In this document: one piece after another, positions 10,845 to 64,000 of the stretch | Position numbering within the stretch: position 1 is the stretch's first letter | Layout: the number at the start of each line of letters is the position of its first letter | Assembly (NCBI RefSeq): GCF_004010195.1 | Contig: NC_057733.1 | Location: forward strand, 33,629,473-33,693,472 | DNA: 64,000 bases | Direction of reading: 5' to 3' | DNA from: Chiloscyllium plagiosum | Taxonomy: Eukaryota | Program-made: the position numbers and the translations under genes | Notes under the pieces: generated by a model | The model's input: the letters and a program-made list of their open reading frames with translations, nothing else | Database searches by the model: none | Told to the model about the DNA's origin: nothing

Positions 10845-11830
10845 GATCAGCGGATTCTCCCATAGAAGCTGCAAGTGATGCTGAAGTCAGTGCTGGGGAC
10901 ACCTGGATCTATTCTCCCCCTTCTCTGTATCTTGCTGACTCTTCTTTCAGCTTCAAAGATCTCTGTAGTTTTCCTAAAGTAGCATCTCCATGTATCACAA
11001 CCTGTGGCCTGTGCTTCAATGTGGCACATAAAGAGATACATGTTTGAGGAGCTCTTGAGATGTTTGCATTGTGCCCTTTTTGCCAATAAATAATGGTCAG
11101 GTCTCCAGGTAATGTGATGTCGGACAAATGACTCATCCATTTAGGCAACATGACCATGCAATGCAGTTGGCCTTGCAGAAGGATGCACTTGATGCTGGAG
11201 ATGTTGGCAGTTTCCAGGACTTCAATGTTTGTGATATGGTCTTGACGAAGCTGCAGAGGCAGTGTTGGTGATAGCAGTCTAGAAGACGCATATGTCGATG
11301 TTAAAGGACCCATGATCAGTGCTATACAGAAGGATGGTGTAGGCTATGGCTTTATAAACTTGATCAGTGCTTGAAGAGTTTAGTCTGTGCTTGCTACACA
11401 CTTGTTTGTAGAGTCGGTCAAATGTGATATTTGTTTCTAAAGGCCCATCTTGCTTGCCTTTAGTGGCATCAAACAAGATGATTCTGTCCAAGTGGGTCAG
11501 TTGCTTGACAGCATATGGCACACTTCCATTGATGACAATGCTTGGTGCTCTATGTTTAACTTGGGATACAGGCTGATGCAGGATCACAATTTTCTTTGAA
11601 TTTTTTTTAGTCTAAAGAGCTGTGCTACCTCAGAAAGTGTGTTGTTATAGGTTGCTGTGGGCAAGAAGAGTGCAGTCATCAGTGAAGTAAAGCTCACAGA
11701 TGAACTTTTCCTGTGTCTTTGTGTGAGCTTAAAAATGCCTGAAGTTGGAAAGACCTCCACAGTATTGTGCAAAGAGCACGGAGTGACAGCATAATTCTGA
11801 ATTATGGGGAAGCTGTCAGTTCAGCAGAAT
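10845..11830 (-). mobile_element. Degenerate RTE-clade LINE, RT C-terminal part
   Basis: ORF fragments ILHQP...VYKAIAYTILLYS and HITNIEVLETANISSIKCILLQGQL resemble RTE/BovB-type ORF ends; many frameshifts. Confidence 0.75.
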
Positions 11831-12334
11831 TGCATTACCCTCTTGGTATAATAATGTTTTATTGAGGTACGAGTAACAGAATCATTGGCCGTTTTAAATA
11901 ATTCACCAATGTTCTCATGACATTGACAGTGTAAGATTGGAAGGAAACTGATATTCAAAAACAGTACATAATGCTTTGATGGCCACCAGCAAACCAAACT
12001 GATGTTCCATTTTGTGTGCAGGTCTTGACAAAGTTCCAGCTGTGTCACAAACAATGGCCACACAAACCCTGTGGCCAAAATTAATTACAAATTTTGAATT
12101 ATTTATAATTAAATGAAGTTTAGAGCTGTGTTCTTGTCGTAGCATTTTTCAAATCTGCAAATTACCTCGGGAAAGAAAGTATGAGCCCATACAATCAGGT
12201 CCAATTTATGCACAGCCCTTTTTATTATTTACAATTCTGTGTCTTATCTGTGAGAAGAAGGTTGAATCTTCAAGAAACATTGATCAGTTCAAGTCTGTTA
12301 GAATGTCAGCTCATTTATAGTTTCACTAGTGCAC

Positions 12335-23250: not shown

Positions 23251-24828
23251 GATCTGACTACTGTCTTATATAGTTTTCGCAAAACCTCCCTACTTCTATA
23301 CTCTGTTCCCTTTGAAATAAAGGCCAACATTCCATTTGTCTTTCTTATTACCCACTGAACTCGGATACTCAGTTTTTGTGATTCCTGGATGAGGATTCCC
23401 CCAGACCCCTTTGATCTGTAGTTTTCTGTGGTCTTTCACCATTTAAACAATATTCACATGTTCTATTCTTCCTGCAATGTGCATAACCTCACACTTCCTC
23501 ACATTATATTTCACCTGCCAAATTTTTACCTGCAAAAATTAACCTGTCTATATCTCTCTGAAGTATCTTTGTGTCAGCCTCGCCACATGCCTTCCCACCT
23601 ATTTTTGTGTCCTCCACAAACTTGGCTATTGTATGTTCTGTTTTGCAAATAATTGTGGTCTCAGCACCAATCCTTGTGGCAGGATGATAATGTGCCCTTT
23701 ATTCCAACTTCCAATCCTGTTTGTGAACACATCCTCTATCCTGTGCTTCCAACAACTTCCAACACTATGGACTCTTAGCTTACAAAGTAGATAATGTATG
23801 GCACCTTTTCAAACATCTTCTAAAAATCCGAATATATTGCATCCACCTCCTCCCCTCTAACTATCCTGCTTGATTACTACCTCAAAAGAATTGTAATAAA
23901 TTTGTGAGGGAAGATTACTACCAGTGTATCCTTTTTATTCCTTTTAAAAACAGCAGCTGATTCCAAAACAGTGTTCTTGAAAATAAATTATCTGGCACCT
24001 TTGTTCTTGTGACCCAAGATGTGCGAAGGGGAACTGTCATGTCTTACTTGCCAACTCAAATTTGCTGGAAACCAACATTAGAACTTGATAGTGTTCCTCC
24101 AGGCTCCAACCATTAGAGATCACTTATTTCCTCCATCTCCTGACGGGGAATTCTGCATCAGAGTAGTTTATGAGGGGGATATCCACCAAGTCCCTGCCAA
24201 CGCCCCCTACTGCCTGATTTTGACAGCTAGGTTGCATCTTCAGACAGAACAAGTCAGCAGAGTGTATATCAATCAGACCGTGCTATTACAAATACTGTGC
24301 TGTCTTCCTACCATGGAGCTGAAAACCTCCACAGTGAATCTAACTGTCCCCACATCAACAACTTTTGCAGCAGAATATGTGTCCTATTATCGGAAACTAT
24401 CTACAGGTATTACCATTGCAACTTATGACTTTTAAGTAGTTAGATGCAATTAAGCTGTTTTAAATTTAATGAAAATTACAGCGCAAAGAAATCTCATTTT
24501 AATAAGAAAATTACAAAACTCTTGTCATTTGACCTTTAAAAACTCTCTGTAGACTGGAAAAAAGATGATGGGAAAATGAACCAAGGTAATTCTAACCTGA
24601 AAGTAAACTGAGAATTCTTGACTAATCTTGAAATATGTTTAAAACAATTCGCACTTATAAATCCATTGCTAGCAAAGGATAATTAGTTTTTTCCAATTTA
24701 ATGTTGTTCGTAAGAATAATTACTGTGCTCAGGTTTGGAAAGTTTTTTTCTGCAGTGATAATTTCCTTTTGCATCAAAGAAGGACAGTGTCCTTTCGATA
24801 AAAAGTCTGATTGTCTAATGCTATTGAG

Positions 24829-25034
24829 ATGGAAATGTGTTGCTGGAAAAGCGCAGCAGGTCAGGCAGCATCTAGGGAACAGGAGAATCGATGTTTCGGG
24901 CATTAGCCCTTCTTCAAGAAGGGCTAATGCCCGAAACGTCGATTCTCCTGTTCCCTAGATGCTGCCTGACCTGCTGCGCTTTTCCAGCAACACATTTCCA
25001 TCTCTGATCTCCAGCATCTGCAGACCTCATTTTC
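24829..25034. mobile_element. Fold-back (palindromic) Penelope-like insertion with 15-bp TSD
   Basis: 89-bp arms centred on 24915; tctaatgctattgag at 24814-24828 and 25035-25049. Confidence 0.9.
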
Positions 25035-25454
25035 TCTAATGCTATTGAGGACTTGGGACAGGAGGTGCACAGGGGCTAGGCAAACTCCCTGGTGGAATGA
25101 CTGCACTGAGCCAAGGAAGTTAAAGAAGCCAAAACCGTGTTGGAAAAGCCACACAAAGGCCTAGAGAATTCAAGAGACAGTTACCGTGTTGTGGCTAGAT
25201 CTAATCAGTACAGGAAGATTCACACAAAGACCTAGCGTAGAGGAAGAGCAATCTTCATTGAACAATCTTCACCAGGCAGATGGACCAGAAGGAGAGGAGG
25301 AAGAACAAATGAGAAGTTCCCTCACACCTCGGCTAGACAGTATGATGCTGCCTTCCCATCACTTCATTGAGACCGGAACATTTCCACGCTTACAGCCAAT
25401 TCCTTGGCATTTGTGAACCATCGTCACACTTGTATACTTTATTTGTCCAATTGT

Positions 25455-42430: not shown

Positions 42431-44743
42431 GAATTTGCCTCAACACAGCTGTAAGTGGGCACATTGTGTTAATTTACATGCAGATGAGATTCATTCTTAA
42501 TTTCAAGACCTGAAGGAACCTTATAAATGGTTAGAGTGAAATTAGGACAAGTTAGTGTGTTATTGTTTCAATGCTGGGACATCAGTTCTGAGGAAACTTG
42601 CTTTGAAATGCATGCTCAATGGCTGGAGATAATTCATTTCAAAGGCAAGAGTCACACAGGGCATGTGGCCACCTGGTTGCATTGATAGTTCTCAGGCTAG
42701 TTTGTCAATTGTGTTATTCAGGGTCCTATACTCTGCAGACTATGCAATTAAGTTGAGTGTCTGGAGCTTTAAAATCACTGAAATGAAAGTGTGAGCACAG
42801 GTGCATTCCTAGGTGGGCTTCTGTTATGATCAGGTTAATCATTGGTGTATATATATATCAGAACCAACTCAAGGTGTCATCTATCTTCTGTTGTTACACA
42901 ATAGGTGGCTTGCAAAATGATGCACGTCACATTAGGTGTGCATAGGTGAAGTTTTTTATCCATCCATTCACTGCTTTATTCTGAAGGTATTCTTGTGTGA
43001 AATGTGAAGCACCAAGGTCAAGAGTACTCGATTTTTAAAACCGTTTTAACATTGTCAGTTTAGTGATATTGTATTTTTATAACTGAAGTGTATCACCATT
43101 CTGCTCCCACTACTTCATAGGTCACAACATAAAATAGAAATTCTTCCTCCAGCCACCAAGATGACCAGTTAAATACTTACCTATATCAGGTTTTCACAAA
43201 ACATTTTATTAACCAATAAATGCAATGAAATATTTATTATAAAACCAAAACTTATTCAATAAAGGTGCAATAATTAGTTAACATAGTTTGTAATAAAGAA
43301 ACATAAACGCATATCTCTATACATACCCCCAGAAAATACGCACATACACATTCACTCACTCTTCAGGAACAGGGAAAAGTAAACATATTTCTCAGCAGAT
43401 AAATTGGCTTTCTGAAGCAAGTATTTTGGTTCATTGGTTACTCTTGAAGGCAAAGGGATAAAGTGTAATATGTTTTGGTATATGTTTCTCTGATGTTGTG
43501 GCATGTATGTGGTCAAGTCACAATCATGCAGAGTTGTCACTGAAGTCTTGCAGACCAAGCTTGTTCCCGAAATACAATCTTGAGACATTCTCTCAATCAC
43601 TTTTTGAAAAGAAGAATACATTTCACCCTGAACTGATGAACTTTTGAGAAATGAGAGAGTGCAGCTGGTCAGCTTGTTCCTGGCATGCTTTCCTCCAAAG
43701 ATTTGTTCTTAGCAGGCTTCCCTTTAAATAAGTTACCAGGTTTTCTTTCAACTAAACCTATTTAAAACAAACCTTTCCAAAACAGGCACTGTTTCAAAAC
43801 AGTCCCAGGCAGGGTCTATGGAAAAGCAAGTAATTCTCACAAGTCATATGATTTTTACAATGTCTTAAAGAAATCTCAACATCCACGCTGAAATGTCAAT
43901 GACCTTCTTTAAAGAAATCACTCCAGGTACATCCACAAAATTCAAAATAAGTTCCTTTCTTCAGAATCCTTTAAAACCCGAGCCCTGCAAGCAACTTTAA
44001 ATGCAAAGCATCTTTGTAACAGTATGAAGAATTGCATTGCAGTTTGTATTCATCGTGCAATGTGTTTTTAATTTAGTTTGACAGAACAAAATCTTTGAAC
44101 TGACACTTGGTGACATTATTGTACTCTAATTTCAGATGCTTCTCTCCACAAAGGGGGAAAAAATAAATCACAATCCTTAAATGTTAAGTCCTCAACTAAA
44201 TATCAAATTTAGACATTGAATACACATCTATCAAGCACACAGGTAATAATGTCACGAGATATCCCAACTAACATCTTTACAAAAACTAAGCAGTACATAC
44301 ATGTTGTTGTGTACAAATAGGATGAAAGAGTTTTAACAAAAAAATTATTTTTGTGGGGATGAAACCTCTTCATCTGTTGCCCTAATAGCTTGTTCAAGTT
44401 AAAATCATTACCAATTCCATAACAGAGAGTAAATAACTCTCAGTTTCAAAGTATATTTGTGCTGTTATATGAGGTTATCCATTTGATTTGGTATGGCATC
44501 TGCAATAGCAGCTAGAAAATAAAAATGAGCTGTTAAATTGCAGATTTACTTTTAAAGGTTAGAAGAGGGAGGTGCATCTAATTATTTAAAATAAGCTTGA
44601 AGGCTTGAGTCTCTTGATGTGTTTTGACCTTATCTATTCAATTTAATTGAAGTAGAAGGAACGTTAAAATACCACTGAGCATCCCTACTTTGGAAATACT
44701 AGTGTCACTTTCAATGTTATAGAACTGACAATAGGTTTTTACA

Positions 44744-44876
44744 GGGCAAAAGTGAGGACTGCAGATGCAGGAAACCAGAGTTTAGATTAGAGTGATGCCG
44801 GAAAAGCACAGCAGGTCAGGCAGCATCCGAGGAGCAGGAAAATTGACGTTTTGGACAAAAACCCTTCATCAGGAAT
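44744..44876 (-). mobile_element. 133-bp Penelope-like terminal unit with 10-bp TSD
   Basis: ggtttttaca at 44734-44743 and 44877-44886; reverse complement begins attcCTGATGAagggtttttgtccaaaacgtc. Confidence 0.88.
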
Positions 44877-45109
44877 GGTTTTTACATTCTTTCAACATCC
44901 CTTGGATTTTCCAAAGAACGCTGGCCAGGTTTGGGATAGGGATAACTAGTTCTAAATCTCTGCTCAATTTAGCAGTGGCCAATTGACTTTGATTATTTAT
45001 GATTGTGCAAGTGGCTGCCCTAAAAGGCATGGGGTATTTAAATAAGGCTGTCCTGACGAGATGATTATAGCACCAAATGTGTTGGCATTACTTAGCATTG
45101 CAAACAAGA

Positions 45110-45294
45110 TACGTGTTGAGGTATGATGCTAACAGTGTGGGTTCAGTTCCTACGCTGGCTGAGGTTACCATGAAGGATTCTTCTCAAATTCTCCCCTCGC
45201 CTGAGGTATGCTGACTCTCAGATTAAACACCCAATAGTCATCTCTCTCTAATGAGAGATCTGCCCTATGATCCAGTAGACAATGATGACTTTAC
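45110..45294 (+). mobile_element. tRNA-derived SINE whose tail is the target of the PLE composite
   Basis: B-box-like ggttcagttcc; body ggctgaggttaccatgaagga..ctcccctcgcctgagg; tail gactttac continues as ctttgac at 48514; related tail fragment at ~41920-41975. Confidence 0.65.
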
Positions 45295-45681
45295 GGAGAA
45301 AGTGAGGTCTGCAGATGCTGGAGATCAGAGCTGAAAATGTGTTGCTGGAAAAGCGCAGCAGGTCAGGCAGCATCCAGGGATCAGGAGAATCGACGTTTCG
45401 GGCATAAGCCCTTCTTCAGGAATGAGGAAAGTTTGTCCAGCAGGCTAAGATAAAAGGTAGGGAGGAGGGACTTGGGGGAGGGGCGTCGGAAATGTGATAG
45501 GTGGAAAGAGGTCAAGGTGAGGGTGATAGGCGAGACTGGGGTGCGGGGGGAGAGGTGGGGAAGAAGATTGCAGGTTAGGAAGGCGGTGCTGAGTTCGATG
45601 GATTTGACTGAGACAAGGTGGGAGGAGGGGAAATGAAATTTTCAGCTCTGATCTCCAGCATCTGCAGACCTCACTTTCTCC
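45295..45681 (-). mobile_element. Young Penelope-like terminal repeat with 44-bp inverted ends
   Basis: 45295-45338 is the reverse complement of 45638-45681; hammerhead-like motif at 45388-45424 on the minus strand. Confidence 0.9.
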
Positions 45682-45844
45682 TATTATGAGACCCAGCTAT
45701 GTTTCTTGAGGGTTAGTAATCAAACTACGTGGTCCTGGTGCCATCTTTAAAAGGCAGCTTGAAGCCATTCAGTGACTGCAAGCATGGAACTGCCACTCAG
45801 CCTGAAGTAGTCTCCCTCAACTGCAGTCAGCATCCCTCCAGTAA

Positions 45845-47150
45845 AACATCAGCTTGCTCCGTGTTTCAGTGATGCTTTATTATAGGTGCTGCTGGAATGA
45901 GGAAGGGACAGAATGGAGGTCCTGCTTTTGGGGGAATGGCATGAGAAAGCCATGACATCAAACCCATCTTGCAAGGACAGAGATAGCAGCATGTGTCAGT
46001 ACCAATGCCCCTCATAAACACACTCCACATGGTGCTGCAAGAAAATAAATGATCTCTTGATCTCCACAAGGATAATTGGCACTCTTTTCTCTCTGTTAGT
46101 TTATGCTCACAGAGCCATCACTCAGTTTAACTCTATCACTGTGCATGCAGCTCACATGCACATTGTTCACTCCAGGGCTCATTCCCACCTCATCCTCTCA
46201 AGATGCCTACCCACCCTCTGCTTTCTGCTGTCACACTGGGGATGGCCCATCATCTCACCATGGTTATACATGCTCACAAAAGGCTCCTGCACCCATTCCC
46301 ATCACACTCAGTCTTTCTCTTTATCTCATTGCAGGAAAAAGTTTGCTCGCAATCGTGGGAAGAGGGCCAAAACCTGTGGAAGGACATAAAGATCTTCACC
46401 TACGCTGAGGAGAGGACAATCGAGCTGGGCAGGGAAGACCAGGATCACTCCTGTAGGGATGGGGAGGGAGAATTAGCCGAGGAACACGGTAGGCAACGTT
46501 GTGGACTACACTTTCTCGGATGAGCGCTGCTGAGACATTTGCCTGCACAGGCTATTGTGCAACTTCGCCAACTAATTCCTCCTGCAGACACTAGGACACC
46601 CAGGAACTATCCTAGAAAACTATCCTGAGCCACTTTGGCATCCCCACCAGCACCTCTGGGAACCCTCAGGGGAAGCACTGGTAAGGCATTCACCACCAGC
46701 TCAGACACTGCCACCTCCCAGTGGGTACTCTTGCCACATTGGATTTGGAGACATAGTCTGGCGAGTCCATTACTGTCAAGTGACCACAGCCAGTGGAACA
46801 AGAAACCCCTGAGGTCTCTGACACGCTCAGACTTGCTGGAGATCAAGTCTATACTGTGTCCCATGGTAAAAGATGTGACTCTGACCTCAGCCATAAGTGA
46901 AACATCCAATCTGCAGCGAAGTCATGAGAACAGCAGGCAAATATGCCAGAAGCCCTCAGTAGGCTGTAGCTAAAGATTCAGCACGTGAGACTGTGGATGC
47001 CTTTATATGGCAAGGGTGGAGGTTACCGTGGAGATCAAAATCCAGCAGAACTCTCAGCTGCCAGACATGTGGTCAGACAAATACATCATTGCTCAGCACC
47101 CATGGTAAGACAAAAGGTGTCAAAGAGAGTACCCGATGCTCACAGGAAGA
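45845..47150 (+). pseudogene. Degenerate intron-containing Harbinger Myb/SANT gene
   Basis: LAPCFSDALL*VLLE*GRDRMEVL...TEIAACVS...CKKINDLLISTR; acceptor tctttatctcattgcag at ~46334 followed by (A)RNRGKRAKTCG, like AHNxRERxKTGGG. Confidence 0.7.
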
Positions 47151-47178
47151 GGTGATAGGTCCCTCAACAACATCTTTT

Positions 47179-47505
47179 GGGTGACACGGTGGCTCAGTGG
47201 TTGGCACTGCTGCCTCACACTGCCAGGGACCTAGGTTTGATTCCCATCTTGGGCGACTGTCTGTGTGGAGTTTGCACATTCTCCCCATGCCTGCATGTGT
47301 TTCCTCCAGGTGCTCCGGTTTCCTCTCACAATCCAAAGATGTGCAGGTCAGGTGAATTGGCCATGCTAAATTGCCCACAGTGTTAGGTGCTTTCTTCAGG
47401 GGCAAATATAGGGGAATGGGTCTGGATAGTTACTCTTCAGAGAGTTGGTGTGAACTTGTTGGGCTGAAGGGCCTGTTTCCATACTGTAGGGAATCTAATC
47501 TAATC
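47179..47505 (+). mobile_element. HE1-type SINE (older subfamily)
   Basis: gggtgacacggtggctcagtggttggc head; (aatct)n tail. Confidence 0.9.
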
Positions 47506-48246
47506 TTTACCAGGCACTTCAGAAATGGCTGCCCCTCCACCTCTTCTCTCAGAGAGAAACTCCAGCTAGAAAAACCCAGGAATTCATGGAAATAAATGTA
47601 CTTGTAGACTGGAGCTTCATTTTGAAGGGTACAAGTTGGAGCAGTATGTCTCATTCACCAGTTTTACTGGCTTTCTCTACTTCCAACAGTGGAGGGCTGG
47701 GAGAGTACACCTTCATCTCTACAGGATAGTCTCAGCTGGATGGAGCCGGTACCCTGAGCATAGCTTCCAAAGACTTCAATGTCACAGGAGTGTACCAATC
47801 AGCAGATTCCCTCCAGCCCACCCACCAGTGGCTGGTGGGACCACACTTAGATGTAAGGAGGAGAGGAAAGTTCGTACTGGCACTGGCCCTCAATAATTGT
47901 ACATAATCTACACTTCTGTAAACATGCATTCACTTTCACTATATTTTACTATGCCAGTAGGAACTTAGAAAGTTCTTGGAAGCATCTTGTCCCAGCAAAA
48001 GGATATGTGACTTCCCACTGTTAGAACCTCTCCCATAACCAGCGAAGTGGGAGATGAGTGACTATCTCAGCCATCAGGGAATCCCAGCCCTGTGTGGTAG
48101 GGACTGTAGATTCTCTTCGGGACACTGATGTTAGTGATAATGTCTCAGGGGGAATTCAGGGTAAGAAATGTCTAGTTGGTGGACACTGTGCTTCCACCTT
48201 ATTGGAGTGATGGCAGAATTTTTCATGTGTTTGCAGGTCCAAGAAG

Positions 48247-48498
48247 CACCTCCTCCCATCCTGCCCCCTGTAAAAACACCATCCCATTCTCCCAATTCCT
48301 TCGACTCCACCGCATCTGCTCCCAGGAGGACCAGTTCCAAAAACGTACAACCCAGATGGCCTCCTTCTTCAAGGACCGCAATTTCCCCCCCGACGTGGTC
48401 GACGATGCACTCCACCGCATCTCTTCCACTTCCCGCTCCTCCGCCCTTGAGCCCCGCCCCTCCTGACCTGCTGCGCTTTTCCAGCAACACATTTTCAG
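48247..48498 (+). mobile_element. Penelope-like ORF fragment fused to truncated terminal repeat
   Basis: TSSHPAPCKNTIPFSQFLRLHRICSQEDQF...FFKDRNFP, then a jump to cctgacctgctgcgcttttccagcaacacattttcag. Confidence 0.9.
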
Positions 48499-49179
48499 CA
48501 ATGATGACTTTACCTTTGACTAACACCCATTTTGCATCATGATCAAACTATTTTCATTCAGTGACAATCATGGGCAAGTAAAATGGACATCCAATGTTGC
48601 TATGCATTCCAATAAGACAATATGGAGGTACAGTTGGATTTAAAACATTTAGCCAAAGTTTTTTAAGGATTAAAATAAGGCTAATTTCTCAGGGAAATTT
48701 GTTTATGTTTTGCAGCTGGTAACTGCTTAATAGGCTTCCTTTTGATGTTGCAGGTTCTCTTCCTTTTCTAAAGACACACCATGAATTTCCTGTTAAGTTC
48801 ACTTTTGTTTGGAAGTGGGAGAGATGATGCACTGCAGAGAAGCCTAGATGGTCACTCACACAGGTGATTTTCGCAATATAACCATTGAGGTATACTATTG
48901 TTTGATAGCCTTGCAGCAGTACTTTGGGAGGAACTGCACCACATCGATGAAGGATGACAAACATTACAATTTGCCTACACCCTGTTGCATGGGTATGTCT
49001 GCTCAGTACACAGTACTATCTGCTACTCATGATGAATACTGCTGCCACTATCTCCTTTAAGTCAGCCTGTTTTGTCTAATGTGGTAGAGGAAAACCACTT
49101 TCTCGTCTAAGTTGAATAATCTCTTGCCATTTTCAAACTTTAACTTTTTGCCTGTTAGCAACTAGTTAAAAGTTACATA

Positions 49180-52099: not shown

Positions 52100-53690
52100 T
52101 CACTTCTACTGCAACTTGTCAAGTCTCTTTTCGATTCTGTTATCAGTCTGTCTTAGAGAATGATGTGATATTGGTGATTCGCTTTCTGTTGATCGGAAAA
52201 CAGATTCTGGAGCAGGCCAAGCTGGCACATGGGGTGTACCCATCCCAGTGACCTGAAGGTTTTGACAGTAAACAAAGGGTGGACTCATAAGGCAAAACCA
52301 TCAGGACTTGGCGGAAGAAAAGCAGAGCGATTATTTGAGTCTTCTTCATATTCTGCGCTGTATCCCACCAGGAATCTTCATGACCCTACTTTAGGAAATG
52401 GAGAATCTACATCTCTTGCTCTGTCTCTTTGGAATGGTCATGGAGGAATAACCCTATGGCACTACTGCACACCAGGAAGGATGATGCCAGAAGAGGGAGG
52501 ACTTTCTGGGCATGTCTATGGAAGTCTCAGAGTAGATATCATTGGAGATAGTGGAGTAGCTTCTCCATGTTCAGGAGCTTGGAGAGTGCTTCAGAGTGGA
52601 GGATGAGATCTCTATATCTTAGATATGGGTTTTCCCTTGCCTCTGAAATAACAAAAATTTTAATCATACCTCCTCTGGGATGGTCATGAACAAAACTGAA
52701 TCGATGAGTATGATTAATTGGACAGTGGATGGTGTGGGGACTGCTATACATCCTTGAATCTGAGATTGTACCTTGAAAGATGACAAAGTTCCCAGGCTGT
52801 GGAATATATGAGCTAGGGAAGATCCCAGTGATTCACTTTCTCTGGATACTATAATCAAAATCTGAAGAAGATAGATCTTTGGTGAGTCCCTCAACAGGAA
52901 AATGATCTGAGAGAGTGACAGATGTTACTTTGGAATAACATATTTTGGAATAACATAGGGAAGATCCTCAAGCTGTAGAAGCACCGAGATTAAAAATGTT
53001 TTGATACATAATGTCTTGAGCAGTAGACTTAATTGAGGTCAAAGATCAGGAGAAGTGGAAGGGATGGTTCAGATGGCTGATTAAAGAATTCCAAAGACTC
53101 AATACAGCAATGCGACAGTACAGCACAGAGAGACTCCAGAGCAGACTGATGTCATGCTGAGGACAAAGGTGTCAAACTAAAAGAAGGTCTTGCTTATCAT
53201 AGGACTCTGATGGCAGCATTGATCTGCATGCTGACTCATAGAATTAGGGAATTCAGTGGCACCCCTGCGAGAATCTGCTGGGGTATACTGGCTTATAGAT
53301 ACAATGATAGGTTCAAAAGATTCATCTGTCCTCAGGCAGTTGGGAGGCAATAGTGGAGGCATGTACCGTGAGCATTTCTACAACATCAGGAAAGATTGTT
53401 TCTCACATTTCTGGAAGGATGTCTAAGAGGATTCAGACAGACGTTCAGTCAGGCTCTGAGACAGAGGCACACCTGCATCAGTGCGGTCAGCAAAGGGTTG
53501 ATACTGGTCAATGGGACGACAGAGATTGTACAAGCATTGTTGATCTCTATGAAAGAGTGTCGCTATATCCACGGTCTTTTCATCCATCAAATCATAAGCA
53601 ATGGTGGCATTTTCCTTCTCATGTGTTCCATCATCAAAGAACAAGTGATAGTTTAACTTGGCATCTACATGCTAATGCATTTAACCTTAC
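52100..53690 (-). pseudogene. Candidate decayed large exon of an unidentified Ser/Pro-rich protein
   Basis: Strong acceptor ttttctttccag adjoining 53690; long stop-poor frames; ORFs 53423-53644 and 53177-53362 share a frame; no TE motifs recognised. Confidence 0.35.
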
Positions 53691-54723: not shown

Positions 54724-56053
54724 ATTAAATGTAGAATGGTCAAAATGGTGCTTCATTTTGGACTGAGATAGCAGTTGAGGGCCTTGATTAAAACATCATA
54801 TTGTGTCATTTCTTCCTCTAACCTGAGGCTGGCTACAACTGCATCAGCAATGTTATCGATGGGCATAGAAAAGCATGCTAGCCTGGTCTTTATCAGGTTT
54901 GGAAGTGGGGCCTGAGGTGGGATGGAATCAGGTAACTACCATACCCACTGAAGGGCTTAGTCTGGACCAGCAATGTGATCTAAATGCTCAGGTAAGGATA
55001 AAGACATATCCATTGATAAAGACAAATCTATGTTCTTCAGTCAAGCAAGCATCTAAGTTAGTTTGTTTGTGTTTAATCGCTGAGCAGTATCTTTTCCACC
55101 AACATTTTGCTAATGAGAACAGCCAGAGACTGCCTCACTGTTCATGCTTCTGCCTTCCCTGATGACTTGGTCCAGACTGCTGACAGATTTAAATGGCCCC
55201 ACCACAAATGGGAATTTTTACTAAGCTAAGGGGCCATTACTATTGTCATTATGTGAGCGGATCATGCTGAGGCTGTAGTGAGAGGCAAGTCTATCTTTAT
55301 GCTTAATCATTTACAATATATAGAGAAGTGGATAAGAGAGAGCATTCTTGGAACTTTACATGCTTGGTCCTTGGTCCATATGAATCCCTATGTTGGAATC
55401 ACCAATGATGAATTTAGCATAATGCGATTTATCCTTTATCTTGCAGTTTCTCAGGTACATACATTTCACTGAAATTTGGATCTGAAAGAAATTTTTACCT
55501 TCCTCTATCTAGTCCACCTCTGACTTCAGCCCAGGGCAATGAGACTGACTTTTAATCACAATCCGTAGGTGCTAAAGCATAAAGACCTGCCCCCACACAC
55601 TCTTGGGAAGTCAGAATGGGCAATGAATGTTGGTATTTCATGAGAATGAGGAGAAAGTGAGGTCTGCAGATGCTGGAAATCAGAGCTGAAAATGTGTTCT
55701 TCAGGAACTTCCTGAAGAAGGGCTTATGCCCGAAACGTCGATTCTCCTGTTCCCTGGATGCTGCCTGACCTGCTGCGCTTCTCCAGCAACACATTTTCAT
55801 TTCCAGAGAATGACCACAGCAAATCAAAACTAAAATACTTTTACTGACACCTATTTATCTCAAAATCCCTGCTTTCTCATTAGCATAGTTGCATAAACAG
55901 GCACGAATCATCTTTTGACCAGATTTTAAGCCTTACAACATTTTAAGCCTTACAACATTAAATGTAGAATGGTCAAAATGGTGCTTCATTTTGGACTGAG
56001 ATAGCAGTTGAGGGCCTTGATTAAAACATCATATTGTGTCATTTCTTCCTCTA
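54724..56053 (+). repeat. 97-bp direct repeat pair (54724-54820, 55957-56053)
   Basis: Identical by eye: attaaatgtagaatggtc...atttcttcctcta. Confidence 0.92.
55650..55798. mobile_element. Fold-back Penelope-like insertion with near-perfect 15-bp TSD
   Basis: atttcatgagaatga at 55635-55649 vs atttccagagaatga at 55799-55813; hammerhead-like core at 55712-55739. Confidence 0.85.
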
Positions 56054-56764
56054 TCTTGCAAGGTGAACTTCAGAATTTCAGGACAATTGGAGTCAGACTT
56101 CCAGTTGGCAACTCCAGCTTTTCAAGCTTTGAGTTTGAAACTTAAAATAAACAATACATTGGGTTCATTTATATTAGGGGTTCTATACCCTAAAATGGCT
56201 CCTGAATTGGTGTTTCTCAGTGTATGATTATTTGGAAGAACATAAAATAGTTTCCACATTTCAAATTGTGCAGTGTTTTATAATATTTATATGTCAATAA
56301 AACATTCAGAAATCACCTTATGTACTTTGAAGGAGAAAAGGAAAATGTTATGCAAATATCTGTTCTTAATGGTCCTGCATGGAAGTGTGAACAACATACC
56401 AATATACAATTCCCCAATCTATGCTTGTGGAAGACTTATCCACTAGGTGGCTTAATATATTGTTAATCACAAACAATGAAAAAATCAAGAGGGAAATTTC
56501 TGAAGTCAGAAAGCACACCTCTTTGCTAAATATGGAATCGTTTTGTCCTAATCTTTACATAATAAATGCATCAAAATCTTACTTTTCAGATGAATGGATT
56601 CAATCTCTCAGTATTTACTTTCTTGTCATGTGCAAGCACAATTTATTAGTTAATTTGACAAGAACTGGGCAGGAATACAAAGGTACCATAATTAAAATAG
56701 ACTGAGTTTCCTTTTATACTGTATATGCTAATAGGATATTTATTAATGAAATTTCTTCCTTATC

Positions 56765-58235
56765 ACAGCAGTGAACAGGAGACTAGTTGAGTGAATGGGT
56801 AGGTGGATGAGTTAGTTCAATAGATAGGGTGGGTAGATGATAAGATAGTTAAGTATGTCGGGCAGTGATGTGGGTAAGCAAGTTGGTATTTAAATCGGTT
56901 AGGGAATGAGGTGAGGTATGTTGGGTCAGGTGGGTTGGTCAGACTGGAGAGGAGTTGGGTTGTCAGAAGCAGTAATCAGGTCAAGGTCAAGTGAGAGAAG
57001 GTTTCAGGTGGCCAGGAGTTATTGGATCAGATCAGGAGAGTATACAAGTCTGGGCAACATTGGGTATGTGCTGCAATTTTTTACTCACTCATAAAATTCT
57101 TGAGTGTTTACCTTTTGTTGCTTCCTGATCTATTGCATTGCAAAGTTGATCTTTGATATAGTACTGAAGAACTGTGGTCTATTTCATATGAAACATTTCA
57201 TAATTTCATAAGAAACAAATATTTCATAGACATAATGGACCAAATCTTCAGATTGTTGAAGATCAGATACATGATTCAAGATGCATTCCAGAACCCGGCA
57301 GAAATCTTGATCTTGGAACCTATGTGGAATTTTCAGATAAGCTTAACCATGTGATTGACATTCCCTCTGCTCCCTATAAATCTCTGCCAAAGTTATCAAT
57401 TCTGAGTCAGGAGATTTTGGATAATTCCATTGACCTTCCTGGGTAATTATCCATGTAATATTAGACAGGTTAAAACCTAGAGTCGAGAGTTTGGTGCTGG
57501 AAAAGCATAACAGGTCAGGCAGCATCTGAGGAACAGGAAAATCGAAGTTTTGGGCAAAAGCCATTCATCAGAAATGAGAGGAATCAGGAATGTCTCATTC
57601 CTGATGAAGGGCTTTTGCCCAAAATGTTGATTTTTCTGCTCCTCAGATGCTGCCTGACTTGCTGTGCTTTTCCAACACCACACATTCGACTCTACTCTCC
57701 AGCATCTGTAGTCCTCACTTTTGTCAGGTTAAAGCCAAATCTAACACTTGGGTAACTATACAACTGAACACGACATCAGTCTTATACCAACAACTACCTG
57801 ACTAGTCCCACATTGCCTTCTCCAACCAGCAAACTGATCATCTACCACCACACTTAACACTGACTCAAACTGATCGACTATTGTCCTGACTCCCGGACTA
57901 CTCAAATGACCTGATCTAGCCCCACCCTGAACATACCCAATGTTGCCCAGACTTGTATACTCTCCTGATCTGATCCAATAACTCCTGGCCACCTGAAACC
58001 TTCTCTCACTTGACCTTGACCTGATTACTGCTTCTGACAACCCAACTCCTCTCCAGTCTGACCAACCCACCTGACCCAACATACCTCACCTCATTCCCTA
58101 ACCGATTTAAATACCAACTTGCTTACCCACATCACTGCCCGACATACTTAACTATCTTATCATCTACCCACCCTATCTATTGAACTAACTCATCCACCTA
58201 CCCATTCACTCAACTAGTCTCCTGTTCACTGCTGT
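56765..58235. repeat. 305-bp inverted repeat (56765-57069, 57931-58235)
   Basis: Arms read as exact reverse complements by eye. Confidence 0.92.
57478..57724. mobile_element. Older fold-back Penelope-like insertion with 12-bp TSD
   Basis: caggttaaa(a/g)cc at 57466-57477 and 57725-57736; diverged inverted arms meeting near tcattcCTGATGAagggc. Confidence 0.85.
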
Positions 58236-63394: not shown

Positions 63395-64000
63395 AAAAAT
63401 TAAGGTTAGGTTTTATTGTCACTTGTACTCAAGTACAGGGGTACAATGAAAAGGTACAAAGGTATCTAGGTATAAAATCTTAGAAAGAAAGTAGAAAAAT
63501 AAGATAAAAAGTTCAACATTGCAGTTCTTCTTAGTATAAAACAGAAATTTTTTTAAAAAGTTAAACGTCCAGCATTACAATCTTTCTTTATTATCAATCT
63601 GCAAACATTTGTCACTGGGCTTTCGCACGCGAGCTCATATTCCCCATGAGGGCCTGTTCTCTCCCCCTCGCTGAGCTTGTTCTCTCCCCTGCGCTGGGCT
63701 TGCTTGATCTTGTCAACGCTGAGCTTGACCCTCCCCTGTGCTGGGCTTGATCTTTTCCGCATGCTGGGATTGATCTCTTCCCCTTGCTGGATTCGATCTC
63801 TCCCCTGTGCTGGGTTTAATCTCCTCCATGCTGGGATTGATCTCTTCCCCATGCTGGATTCGATCTCTCCCCTGTGCTGGGTTTGATCTCCTCCATGCTG
63901 GGATCGATCTCTACCTTACGTGGCACTTGTTCTCTCCCCCATGCTGGGATTGATCTCTCTCCCGCATGGGGCTTGTTCTCTCCCCTGTGATGGGATTGAT
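63395..64000 (-). mobile_element. Retroposon 3' end with internal 21-23-bp minisatellite (runs off the window)
   Basis: Reverse-complement tail gagtacaagtgacaataaaacctaacct; array gggattgatctctcccc(a/t)tgct from ~63650 to the window end. Confidence 0.6.

Follow-up and report, generated by a model that had tools for sequence, protein, structure and literature searches.

The block at positions 45280-48513 of the window, the 64,000-nucleotide stretch of Chiloscyllium plagiosum DNA analysed here (NC_057733.1, positions 33,629,473 to 33,693,472), is, on the evidence of its sequence, one member of a source-traced, multi-copy transduction system of Penelope-like elements (PLEs). It was probably made (we put this at about 0.6) by template-switching target-primed reverse transcription guided by homology, which would have brought cargo from the flank of a PLE on contig C12 into a single young PLE insertion. 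The block consists of the following features.

45280..45294, plus strand: left copy of the target-site duplication, 15 bp, in the 3' tail of an old SINE-like repeat
45295..45637, minus strand: PLE terminal-repeat arm, 343 bp, with the tailed end at 45295
45395..45419, minus strand: hammerhead-like minimal core (CTGAAGA...GAAA), recognised by eye
45627..45653, no strand assigned: fold-back junction J, with the break between 45637 and 45638
45638..45681, plus strand: inverted tail of the terminal repeat, 44 bp, the homology stretch where differing cargos join J
45682..48248, plus strand: cargo, 2,567 bp, matching the flank beyond the tailed PLE end at G000:C12
45847..46074, plus strand: broken frame of a decayed multi-copy repeat, with a putative Myb/SANT-like resemblance seen by eye
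47175..47504, plus strand: old SINE copy within the cargo, ~79% identical to three other window copies
48247..48463, plus strand: PLE ORF piece, 217 bp, from between the RT core and the GIY-YIG endonuclease
48462..48498, plus strand: terminal-repeat piece, 37 bp, ending at the tail-less end site (...ACATTTTCAG)
48499..48513, plus strand: right copy of the target-site duplication, 15 bp

The structure of the ends indicates that the block is a single, very recent PLE insertion into an old SINE tail. By exact-match count within the window, CAATGATGACTTTAC is present at 45280-45294 and 48499-48513; a third match found in the search carries two mismatches, and at least three hits were reached in 0/100 shuffles. 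The single 15-bp target-site duplication proposed around the block in the initial annotation is borne out, both copies being exact. Removal of the block was also expected to restore the host SINE tail, and this agrees with the 19 paralogues of the left flank, in which CTTT follows at the equivalent position exactly (5) or with one base off (3 more) and none of which is interrupted there. The ends resemble those of a 149-bp insertion at 55650-55798, as had been noticed earlier (98% over 49 nt and 97% over 36 nt). The overall order of parts was likewise read correctly, but the segment 45295-45681, taken as one repeat, consists of a 343-bp minus-strand arm and, after it, a plus-strand tail of 44 bp (45638-45681, which repeats 45295-45338 perfectly in inverted orientation), and the cargo end, placed at 48246, is refined to 48246/48248, CA (2 nt) being common to the cargo and the ORF piece. 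The ORF piece and the last terminal-repeat piece overlap by 2 nt as well.

The observed/expected CpG ratio is 0.46 and 0.82 in the PLE parts, 0.10-0.20 in the cargo and 0.18-0.20 in the flanks. This contrast fits the earlier description of young PLE parts around old cargo, yet the cargo is old in content only: it was freshly copied, since it is identical to a copy on contig C4 and differs from the C12 donor at 4 positions in 2,611 nt with 0 gaps. PLE ends are abundant in the window, and one might suppose that two independent PLE fragments happen to surround native DNA, the 15-mer having arisen by chance or by local duplication. The probability of this is negligible, given that copies without any difference from the cargo exist on other contigs, that C12 is the only place where it has a native continuation, and that the flanks rejoin as a SINE tail. 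A single integration event that placed the whole block, with foreign cargo, is supported by the duplication and by the donor elsewhere.

A longer genomic copy (L145), 96.8% identical to the ORF piece, has a frame that runs into a GIY-YIG-like domain, and the best hit of the piece in the Atlas (0.97) belongs to a GIY-YIG/HTH_animal cluster, which points to an EN+ PLE with an RT followed by a C-terminal GIY-YIG endonuclease. The ends are those of a pLTR, with an inverted arm, a tailed end at 45295 and a tail-less end at 48498, the two lying about 35 nt apart in the repeat. A C-x4-C-x2-C linker was read by eye in L083, and in L145 with the last Cys changed. According to the accessible text of PMC8557442, a CX2-5CxxC linker between RT and EN marks the Neptune/Nematis clade, and the element is predicted by this linker to be of Neptune type. 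Pfam gave no useful hit on the PLE frames, and an intact full-length PLE ORF was not recovered, the long "open frames" that were fetched being gap-inflated or broken. The motif at 45395-45419, a putative hammerhead-like core by its agreement with the consensus, had no Rfam match, and its predicted fold was no better than that of shuffles.

The cargo itself is decayed repeat DNA, and no functional effect is claimed at this locus. Its earlier label as a Harbinger Myb/SANT gene is kept as a resemblance at eye level: Pfam had no hit for the cargo frame and two paralogues, and no terminal repeats were found among the PIF/Harbinger signs looked for in the cargo. An Rfam scan of 44700-47100 returned a single chance snoRNA match (E 0.41), and no host gene able to supply a transcript was recognised by eye among the 145 window frames.

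The near-identical donor beside a PLE end, for which a search had been proposed, was found on a contig other than the window's (G000:C12, cargo start 43632356, minus strand), and the flank continues natively there. This donor carries its own 14-bp duplication (1 mismatch) and itself inverts 3 nt from the J break point. A LINE 5' end lies at a distance of 3.5 kb from it. The cargo starts with the donor's own target-site duplication, TATTATGAGACCCA. As in other transductions, the cargo matches the flank of the source element from its boundary, and the whole unit lies inside one target-site duplication; it differs from a classical 3' transduction in that the cargo comes after the inverted tail and, read along the element, upstream of the tailed arm.

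Pieces of the C12 flank were found in six daughters on six contigs. They are nested (2766, 2567, 1249, 1109-1112, 514 and 182 bp), share one start at the donor duplication and all have junction J in common; the junction between tail and C12 flank has only 7 matches in the genome. Thus the capture was not the lone event assumed in the initial annotation, five sister insertions sharing the junction and nested pieces of the same flank, and, because the cargo of the C4 sister (within C4:91818900-91822300; 2,766 bp) is longer than that of the window copy (2,567 bp), the capture step need not have occurred at the window site. Read-through transduction or template switching had both been suggested. 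Plain 3' read-through is discarded, the cargo being inverted relative to the synthesis-start end and lying behind a junction from a third locus (C7), but PLE ends do mobilise cargo, and repeatedly. In the C5 and C6 daughters, minus-strand ORF pieces reach from the cargo to the right duplication, and the C14 daughter lacks a duplication and runs into a LINE piece. As to an RNA intermediate, the nested truncation fits; neither spliced cargo, nor poly(A), nor a transcript was seen.

Junction J occurs in 125 exact copies in the genome, and its home is a short insertion on C7 (G000:C7:22329358) with its own duplication and native flank. Three different cargos were found behind it. The C7 tail-flank junction has 112 matches, and about 112 places hold the C7 flank; among 57 fetched daughters with C7 cargo, 19 extend to position 1166 and 38 end at various points. 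The third donor is on C2, and its flank is carried by two places behind J. A related family with a fourth flank, Y, which adjoins a tail-less inverted end, has 302 matches to the flank start and nested decay; pattern searches for its source copy gave 1 and 5 hits, all unrelated stubs. Duplications of 13-18 bp (mode 14) were present at 37/54 evaluable J loci versus 4/54 controls. The route appears to have spread neighbouring DNA to hundreds of places in the genome. Two origins of J were considered and rejected: a programmed break at the transcription start, since ordinary copies have the ORF running through this point and J has a single C7 home, and self-insertion at the tail or a fold-back onto flanking DNA of the new site, with which the flanks do not agree.

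The assembly is fragmented (101,977 contigs), with gaps inside many copies and zero interior variation. Another explanation could be that the outer boundaries are real and that the assembler, misled by the 44-46 nt identical tail, built a chimeric interior, namely the J-cargo join and the haplotype patchwork. This is very improbable. The cargo-end junction is different in every daughter, and most daughters have a duplication of their own; in the donors the same tail is preceded by other, ordinary sequence, so that the assembler told the two forms apart; and in L084 haplotype H2 is found no more than 135 nt from a unique junction. The daughters differ from the assembled donors at 4 SNPs for C12, at 1 SNP and a 14-bp deletion for C7, and at 4 SNPs for C2, 2 of them matching a second allele fragment at C2. 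Since they differ from every assembled donor, an unseen allele or an intermediate is needed.

It is also conceivable that the capture used DNA, invasion of the C12 element or its flank by a sense-tail cDNA having led to copying of chromosomal DNA, and that the founder then spread by ordinary PLE retrotransposition. The introns and splice-like sites of the cargo are untouched, with 0 gaps against the donor, and rotifer PLEs are reported to retain introns in captured genes (PMC3846280, as far as the accessible text goes). We nevertheless regard this as unlikely. The donor is on another contig, and thousands of copies share the tail, yet the C12 cargo stands behind two J haplotypes, H1 (C4, C2) and H2 (window, C14, C5, C6), and donor C is likewise found behind two. 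Moreover, DNA capture would alter the founding step only, and the nested series would still require spreading at the RNA level.

The distribution of variants along the arm bears on the template at which copying starts. Variation among J copies is confined to the outer ~140 bp, from the tail to the hammerhead; in the window arm this part carries copy-private variants, and the inner ~200 bp is haplotype H2, common to other J copies. Singletons in 18 non-Y J arms occupy 2/3600 cells of the inner 200 nt versus 33/2348 of the outer 143 nt (Fisher p 1e-11), and ordinary arms (n=47, 24 of them starting at positions 200-239) have no such step (21/2132 versus 54/5381). Age does not account for the outer-arm variants, because cargo near unique junctions is free of mismatches (0 in 4366 nt, 38 copies), a control confined to the cargo ends. 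The right-end piece of the C4 copy has the outer private variant without the inner one, and private variants are common to left and right pieces at 2/5 loci where the right piece covers the left variant. The step lies ~140 nt from the unique flank, near short-read length, and the assembler could have flattened the inner arm. In a second subfamily the outer arm is almost invariant, so the signal of a helper RNA could not show there. The confinement of variants to the outer arm suggests that synthesis begins on a helper RNA and then moves, guided by homology, to an RNA that carries the cargo.

In the mechanism that we favour, template-switching target-primed reverse transcription, the endonuclease would cut with a ~14-nt stagger and both strands would prime. 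The left-primed strand would start at the tail site on a short helper RNA from any of the many copies, reach the helper 5' end near the hammerhead and re-anneal to a J-bearing RNA; this transcript would run in from the cargo side through the fold-back end, and copying would stop in the cargo. The right-primed strand would start at the tail-less site, copy 37 nt, jump into the ORF and join the cargo over 2 nt. J was probably joined to the C12 flank once or twice, through template switching within the 44-nt inverted tail, giving source copies (the C4 or the window copy are candidates) that would have spawned the rest. The fold-back end may serve as an adaptor, a transcript entering from either side ending in a sense terminal repeat usable by the enzyme. 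An anole PLE is reported to use two internal start sites, 30-40 nt from each other, and to cut and extend both strands, and a dimer is predicted for it (PMC11167929, accessible text). The scheme draws directly on the duplication, the donor, the five sisters, J and its C7 home, the three cargos, the nested lengths and the patchwork terminal repeat. Against it, the RNA templates are what we infer and transcripts from the donor flanks were not observed; no intron has been lost from the cargo, so that RNA and DNA templates are not directly told apart. The position of the variation step near short-read length, the sharing of private variants at no more than 2/5 loci, the C14 daughter, the failure to find the Y source copy and the need for an unseen allele or intermediate also speak against it.

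The pieces right of J in the window are all in donor sense orientation, and a plus-strand PLE piece follows the cargo in 29 of the 64 cargo-bearing daughters. These observations would also suit twin priming on a sense read-through RNA, in which the right strand jumps to the transcript leaving the donor 3' end, copies flank and tail and anneals to the left strand, amounting to an inverted 3' transduction; in LINE-1, twin priming yields chimeras of opposite orientation (PMC13174262, accessible text). We consider it quite unlikely, as a minus-strand piece follows the cargo in 11/64 and in C5 and C6 reaches the right duplication, where there is no start site, as flank Y adjoins a tail-less inverted end, and as J must still be imported from C7. 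The C5 and C6 pieces are the product expected of a continuing left-primed strand under homology-guided template switching.

PLE capture of host DNA is known from a rotifer, Adineta vaga, in which Penelope elements capture it between pLTRs; the capture described here is source-traced and multi-copy. The accessible text on A. vaga (PMC3846280) reports a similar arrangement, in which direct and inverted pLTRs enclose DNA foreign to the element, with a single duplication around the unit, retained introns and mobilisation in trans. That text covers one NRPS gene and "a few other cases" with unique spacers, from the Penelope/Poseidon clade, with an 8-bp duplication and no donor traced in it, whereas here the donors are traced, the nested series comprise 6 to 300 copies, the duplications are ~14 bp, the linker is of Neptune type and cargo is swapped behind one junction. 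A canonical EN+ PLE insertion is described as an inverted 5'-truncated copy with a 30-40-bp tail (PMC8557442 and PMC11167929, accessible parts), and the present unit shares with it the tailed and tail-less ends, the inverted arm, a putative hammerhead-like motif and the end sites ~35 nt apart. It differs in holding kilobases of donor flank between the arms, in an inversion junction that is inherited across loci and not made anew, and in a start portion that appears to come from a different template than the rest. Traceable flanks, chimeras of several RNAs in one duplication and secondary sources are also found in LINE-1 5'/3' transductions and template-switch/twin-priming chimeras (PMC13174262, accessible text). 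Unlike LINE-1, there is no poly(A) here, the start is internal at the tail, the cargo is unspliced, and the switches appear to use long terminal-repeat homology. In the minus-strand strong-stop transfer of retroviruses, a short first cDNA is moved by terminal-repeat homology to another template. That system has a tRNA primer, an integrase and a true LTR, and the PLE here is primed by target DNA without these; a similar transfer appears to take place here, and the likeness is one of mechanism only. A literature search, with subscription papers and supplements outside its scope, found no multi-copy, source-traced PLE transduction in vertebrates.

The in vitro study, in its accessible part, ends at initiation (PMC11167929). 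The loci described here are source-traced natural products that bear on the way PLEs form inverted ends, retain introns and take up host DNA, and their nucleotide markers point to a change of template near the hammerhead and a change of cargo inside the tail. Tentatively, and with rather more doubt than confidence, we suggest that fold-back PLE stubs might form a standing, trans-mobilised DNA-shuffling network, with routine starts on short helper RNAs headed by a hammerhead, a strong-stop-like transfer onto any transcript that crosses a fold-back and homing through the 44-nt tail to swap flanks. In a vertebrate germline, one 350-bp stub might in this way seed families of duplications that are several kilobases long, retain introns and number in the hundreds, and the whole composite might be taken over by a second PLE subfamily. 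If this is general, the very abundant fold-back stubs would be an active source of kilobase duplications able to move exons or regulatory DNA between chromosomes.

The initial annotation placed one 15-mer at both ends of the block, and the match is exact (45280-45294 and 48499-48513) and above chance expectation. Self-comparison resolved the left part of the block into two pieces of a Penelope-like element (PLE):

45295-45637, minus strand, terminal-repeat arm of 343 bp
45638-45681, plus strand, copy of the terminal-repeat end (the tail) of 44 bp

The same comparison placed after the tail the non-PLE DNA (the cargo), including an old SINE, then an ORF piece of 217 bp and a repeat piece of 37 bp, the latter stopping some 35 nt before the tailed end of the terminal repeat is reached. 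The joins of the ORF piece to the cargo and to the repeat piece show 2-nt overlaps. The proposal that removal of the block restores the host SINE tail was borne out, as left-flank paralogues are uninterrupted at the site and 5 of 19 have exactly the four bases found after the right duplication, with 3 more of the 19 one base off.

The ORF piece comes from a family with very many copies (38,841 candidates, 150 of them scored, in the 3.56 Gb and 101,977 contigs of the assembly searched). Its longer copies carry a C-x4-C-x2-C linker followed by a GIY-YIG-like domain; a linker of this type is a mark of Neptune/Nematis elements in the available text of PMC8557442. Judged by its repeats, the genome looks shark-like. 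Short fold-back stubs of the PLE subfamily of the block lie at 55650-55798 (149 bp, with a 14-bp duplication with 2 mismatches) and 24826-25036. A 305-bp inverted repeat (56765-57069 and 57931-58235), with 100% complementary arms 861 bp apart, surrounds a PLE fold-back of greater age (57479-57721); neither of the two reference PLE subfamilies accounts for it. The window also contains a 102-bp local duplication (54724-54825 and 55957-56058; 98% identity, 1.2 kb apart), the second copy of which comes after a short tandem duplication, a decayed tandem array with a unit of about 23 bp (63644-63983), and two broken minus-strand frames (10850-12148 and 53426-53671), by eye like transposase or gene remnants.

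A genome search for the proposed donor of the cargo was successful. Seven sites match the initial 1,469 bp of cargo at 100%, each beginning at cargo base 1; the tail-cargo junction has exactly seven genomic matches, and the distal cargo part three. On contig C12, a 340-bp plus-strand arm runs up to the tail and the cargo then runs on as ordinary genome, the element being bounded by a 14-bp duplication (one mismatch), and the right copy of this duplication makes up cargo bases 1-14. Since the cargo continues natively here and is opened by the duplication, C12 is the donor. The remaining six sites are insertions with a common left architecture.

Cargo length in the six daughter insertions, by contig
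C4 daughter, 2766 bp
Window daughter, 2567 bp
C2 daughter, 1249 bp
C14 daughter, about 1110 bp
C5 daughter, 514 bp
C6 daughter, 182 bp

Beyond the cargo, C14 has a piece of a LINE and the other daughters have unrelated PLE pieces. Five of the six lie within duplications of 13-15 bp (one mismatch in C5; in C2, 8 additional bases on the left side), and none was found flanking the C14 daughter. Among daughters the cargo differs at a single base, located at the C14 junction, and they have as many as four changes in common relative to the assembled donor; their 343-bp arms do vary (9 mismatches when window and C4 are compared). Locus L020 (G000:C12) contains, some 3.5 kb past the donor's tailed end, the 5' end of a LINE, CR1-like by eye, with raised CpG.

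The fold-back junction J was probed with a 27-mer spanning 45637/45638, which occurs 125 times in the genome. Among the first 30 of these loci, 26 carry a second flank, three the C12-type cargo and one a third flank; the junction of the second flank, named after contig C7, has 112 genomic matches. J is a one-off junction of the C7 insertion, because locus L091 on C7, a fold-back of about 350 bp, has its own 14-bp duplication and the only native continuation of that flank within the search. The inversion point of the C12 donor lies 3 nt from the J position, near the ORF end, a near-coincidence that possibly marks a hot spot. The third flank leads to an ordinary PLE on C2; an assembled fragment that lacks this PLE lies next to it, pointing to a polymorphic insertion. 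Locus L104 (G000:C2:61888194-61889938) has two copies (879-1181 and 1501 onward) of the initial 302 bp of the third cargo, one of them without the PLE, and these are probably both alleles of the polymorphic insertion, assembled in tandem. With 69 J loci taken in 10-kb context and the left end not called by motif in 15, a 13-18-bp duplication was found at 37 of 54 evaluable loci versus 4 of 54 controls.

Most fetched C7-flank loci (49/58) also hold 1.4 kb of further DNA, termed Y, together with the fold-back end of another PLE subfamily. Sequence at the beginning of Y matches the genome 302 times, and inversion junctions among 50 Y loci are of seven kinds (22, 14, 8, 2, 2, 1 and 1). Copy number declines steadily away from the tailed end, as in 5' truncation; pattern searches of the genome found no source copy of Y. 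At position 1166 of the C7 cargo, a microsatellite, 6 of the 19 copies reaching it run on gapless and enter sequences that are all different (PLE, SINE, LINE-like or other); a template end and an assembly break are candidate readings.

Single-copy variants in 18 J arms without Y occupy 2/3600 cells in the 200 nt adjoining J and 33/2348 in the 143 nt that extend from shortly before a hammerhead-like motif to the tail, versus 21/2132 and 54/5381 in corresponding segments of 47 ordinary arms. The variation boundary lies near one short-read length from unique sequence, so the assembly could have flattened the interiors. Nearly half of the ordinary arms (24/47) start at the same boundary. Cargo beside unique junctions has 0 mismatches in 4366 nt, and thus the insertions are too young for mutation to account for the outer-arm variants. 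The inner arm has a few haplotypes, none seen in 16 ordinary hits, and these are shuffled against cargo: H1 occurs with C12 cargo (C4, C2), and H2 with C12, C7 and C2 cargo. An outer private variant of the left arm is present in the right-end piece of C4 and L084 and absent from that of L099, C2 and L086.

According to the available text of PMC11167929, both strands are cut and extended by a PLE protein, which initiates within its RNA at two sites lying on either side of the tail; by analogy, we infer that the two ends of the block lie at equivalent sites. In the simplest reading, the left-primed strand would start on a short helper RNA, switch by homology to a transcript entering a J-bearing locus from the cargo side, and continue over J and the inverted tail into the cargo; the right-primed strand would make both small PLE pieces, and the 2-nt overlaps would join the two strands. 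A sense read-through RNA with twin priming, instead of a continuing left strand, is disfavoured, as minus-strand pieces up to the right duplication in C5 and C6 point to the latter. The initial annotation had a single PLE integration copying unrelated DNA by read-through transduction or template switching; template switching is retained in the proposed reading, while sense read-through is not favoured. Across 64 daughters, the PLE piece after the cargo is plus-strand in 29 and minus-strand in 11, the rest having a gap (13) or none of the reference sequences (11).

One or two founders would most likely have brought the C12 cargo behind J, through a switch inside the 44-nt tail; a DNA template for the founding capture is a less likely but plausible alternative. 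Since the C4 cargo is longer, the window copy cannot have been the only founder; speculatively, this copy, the longest with H2, could be a secondary source. The LINE 5' end on C12 lies just past the longest cargo and, judged from sequence, is a candidate for the antisense promoter that would drive transcription toward the donor.

In the literature searched, no paper describes PLEs with traced donors, nested series in many copies, a fold-back junction passed on between loci, or exchange of cargo at the tail. For LINE-1, both transductions and chimeras are well documented (PMC13174262, available text), and in Adineta vaga PLEs host DNA is captured between PLE repeats within one duplication, as here (PMC3846280, available text). 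The block is a real insertion and a variant of this known PLE capture of host DNA.
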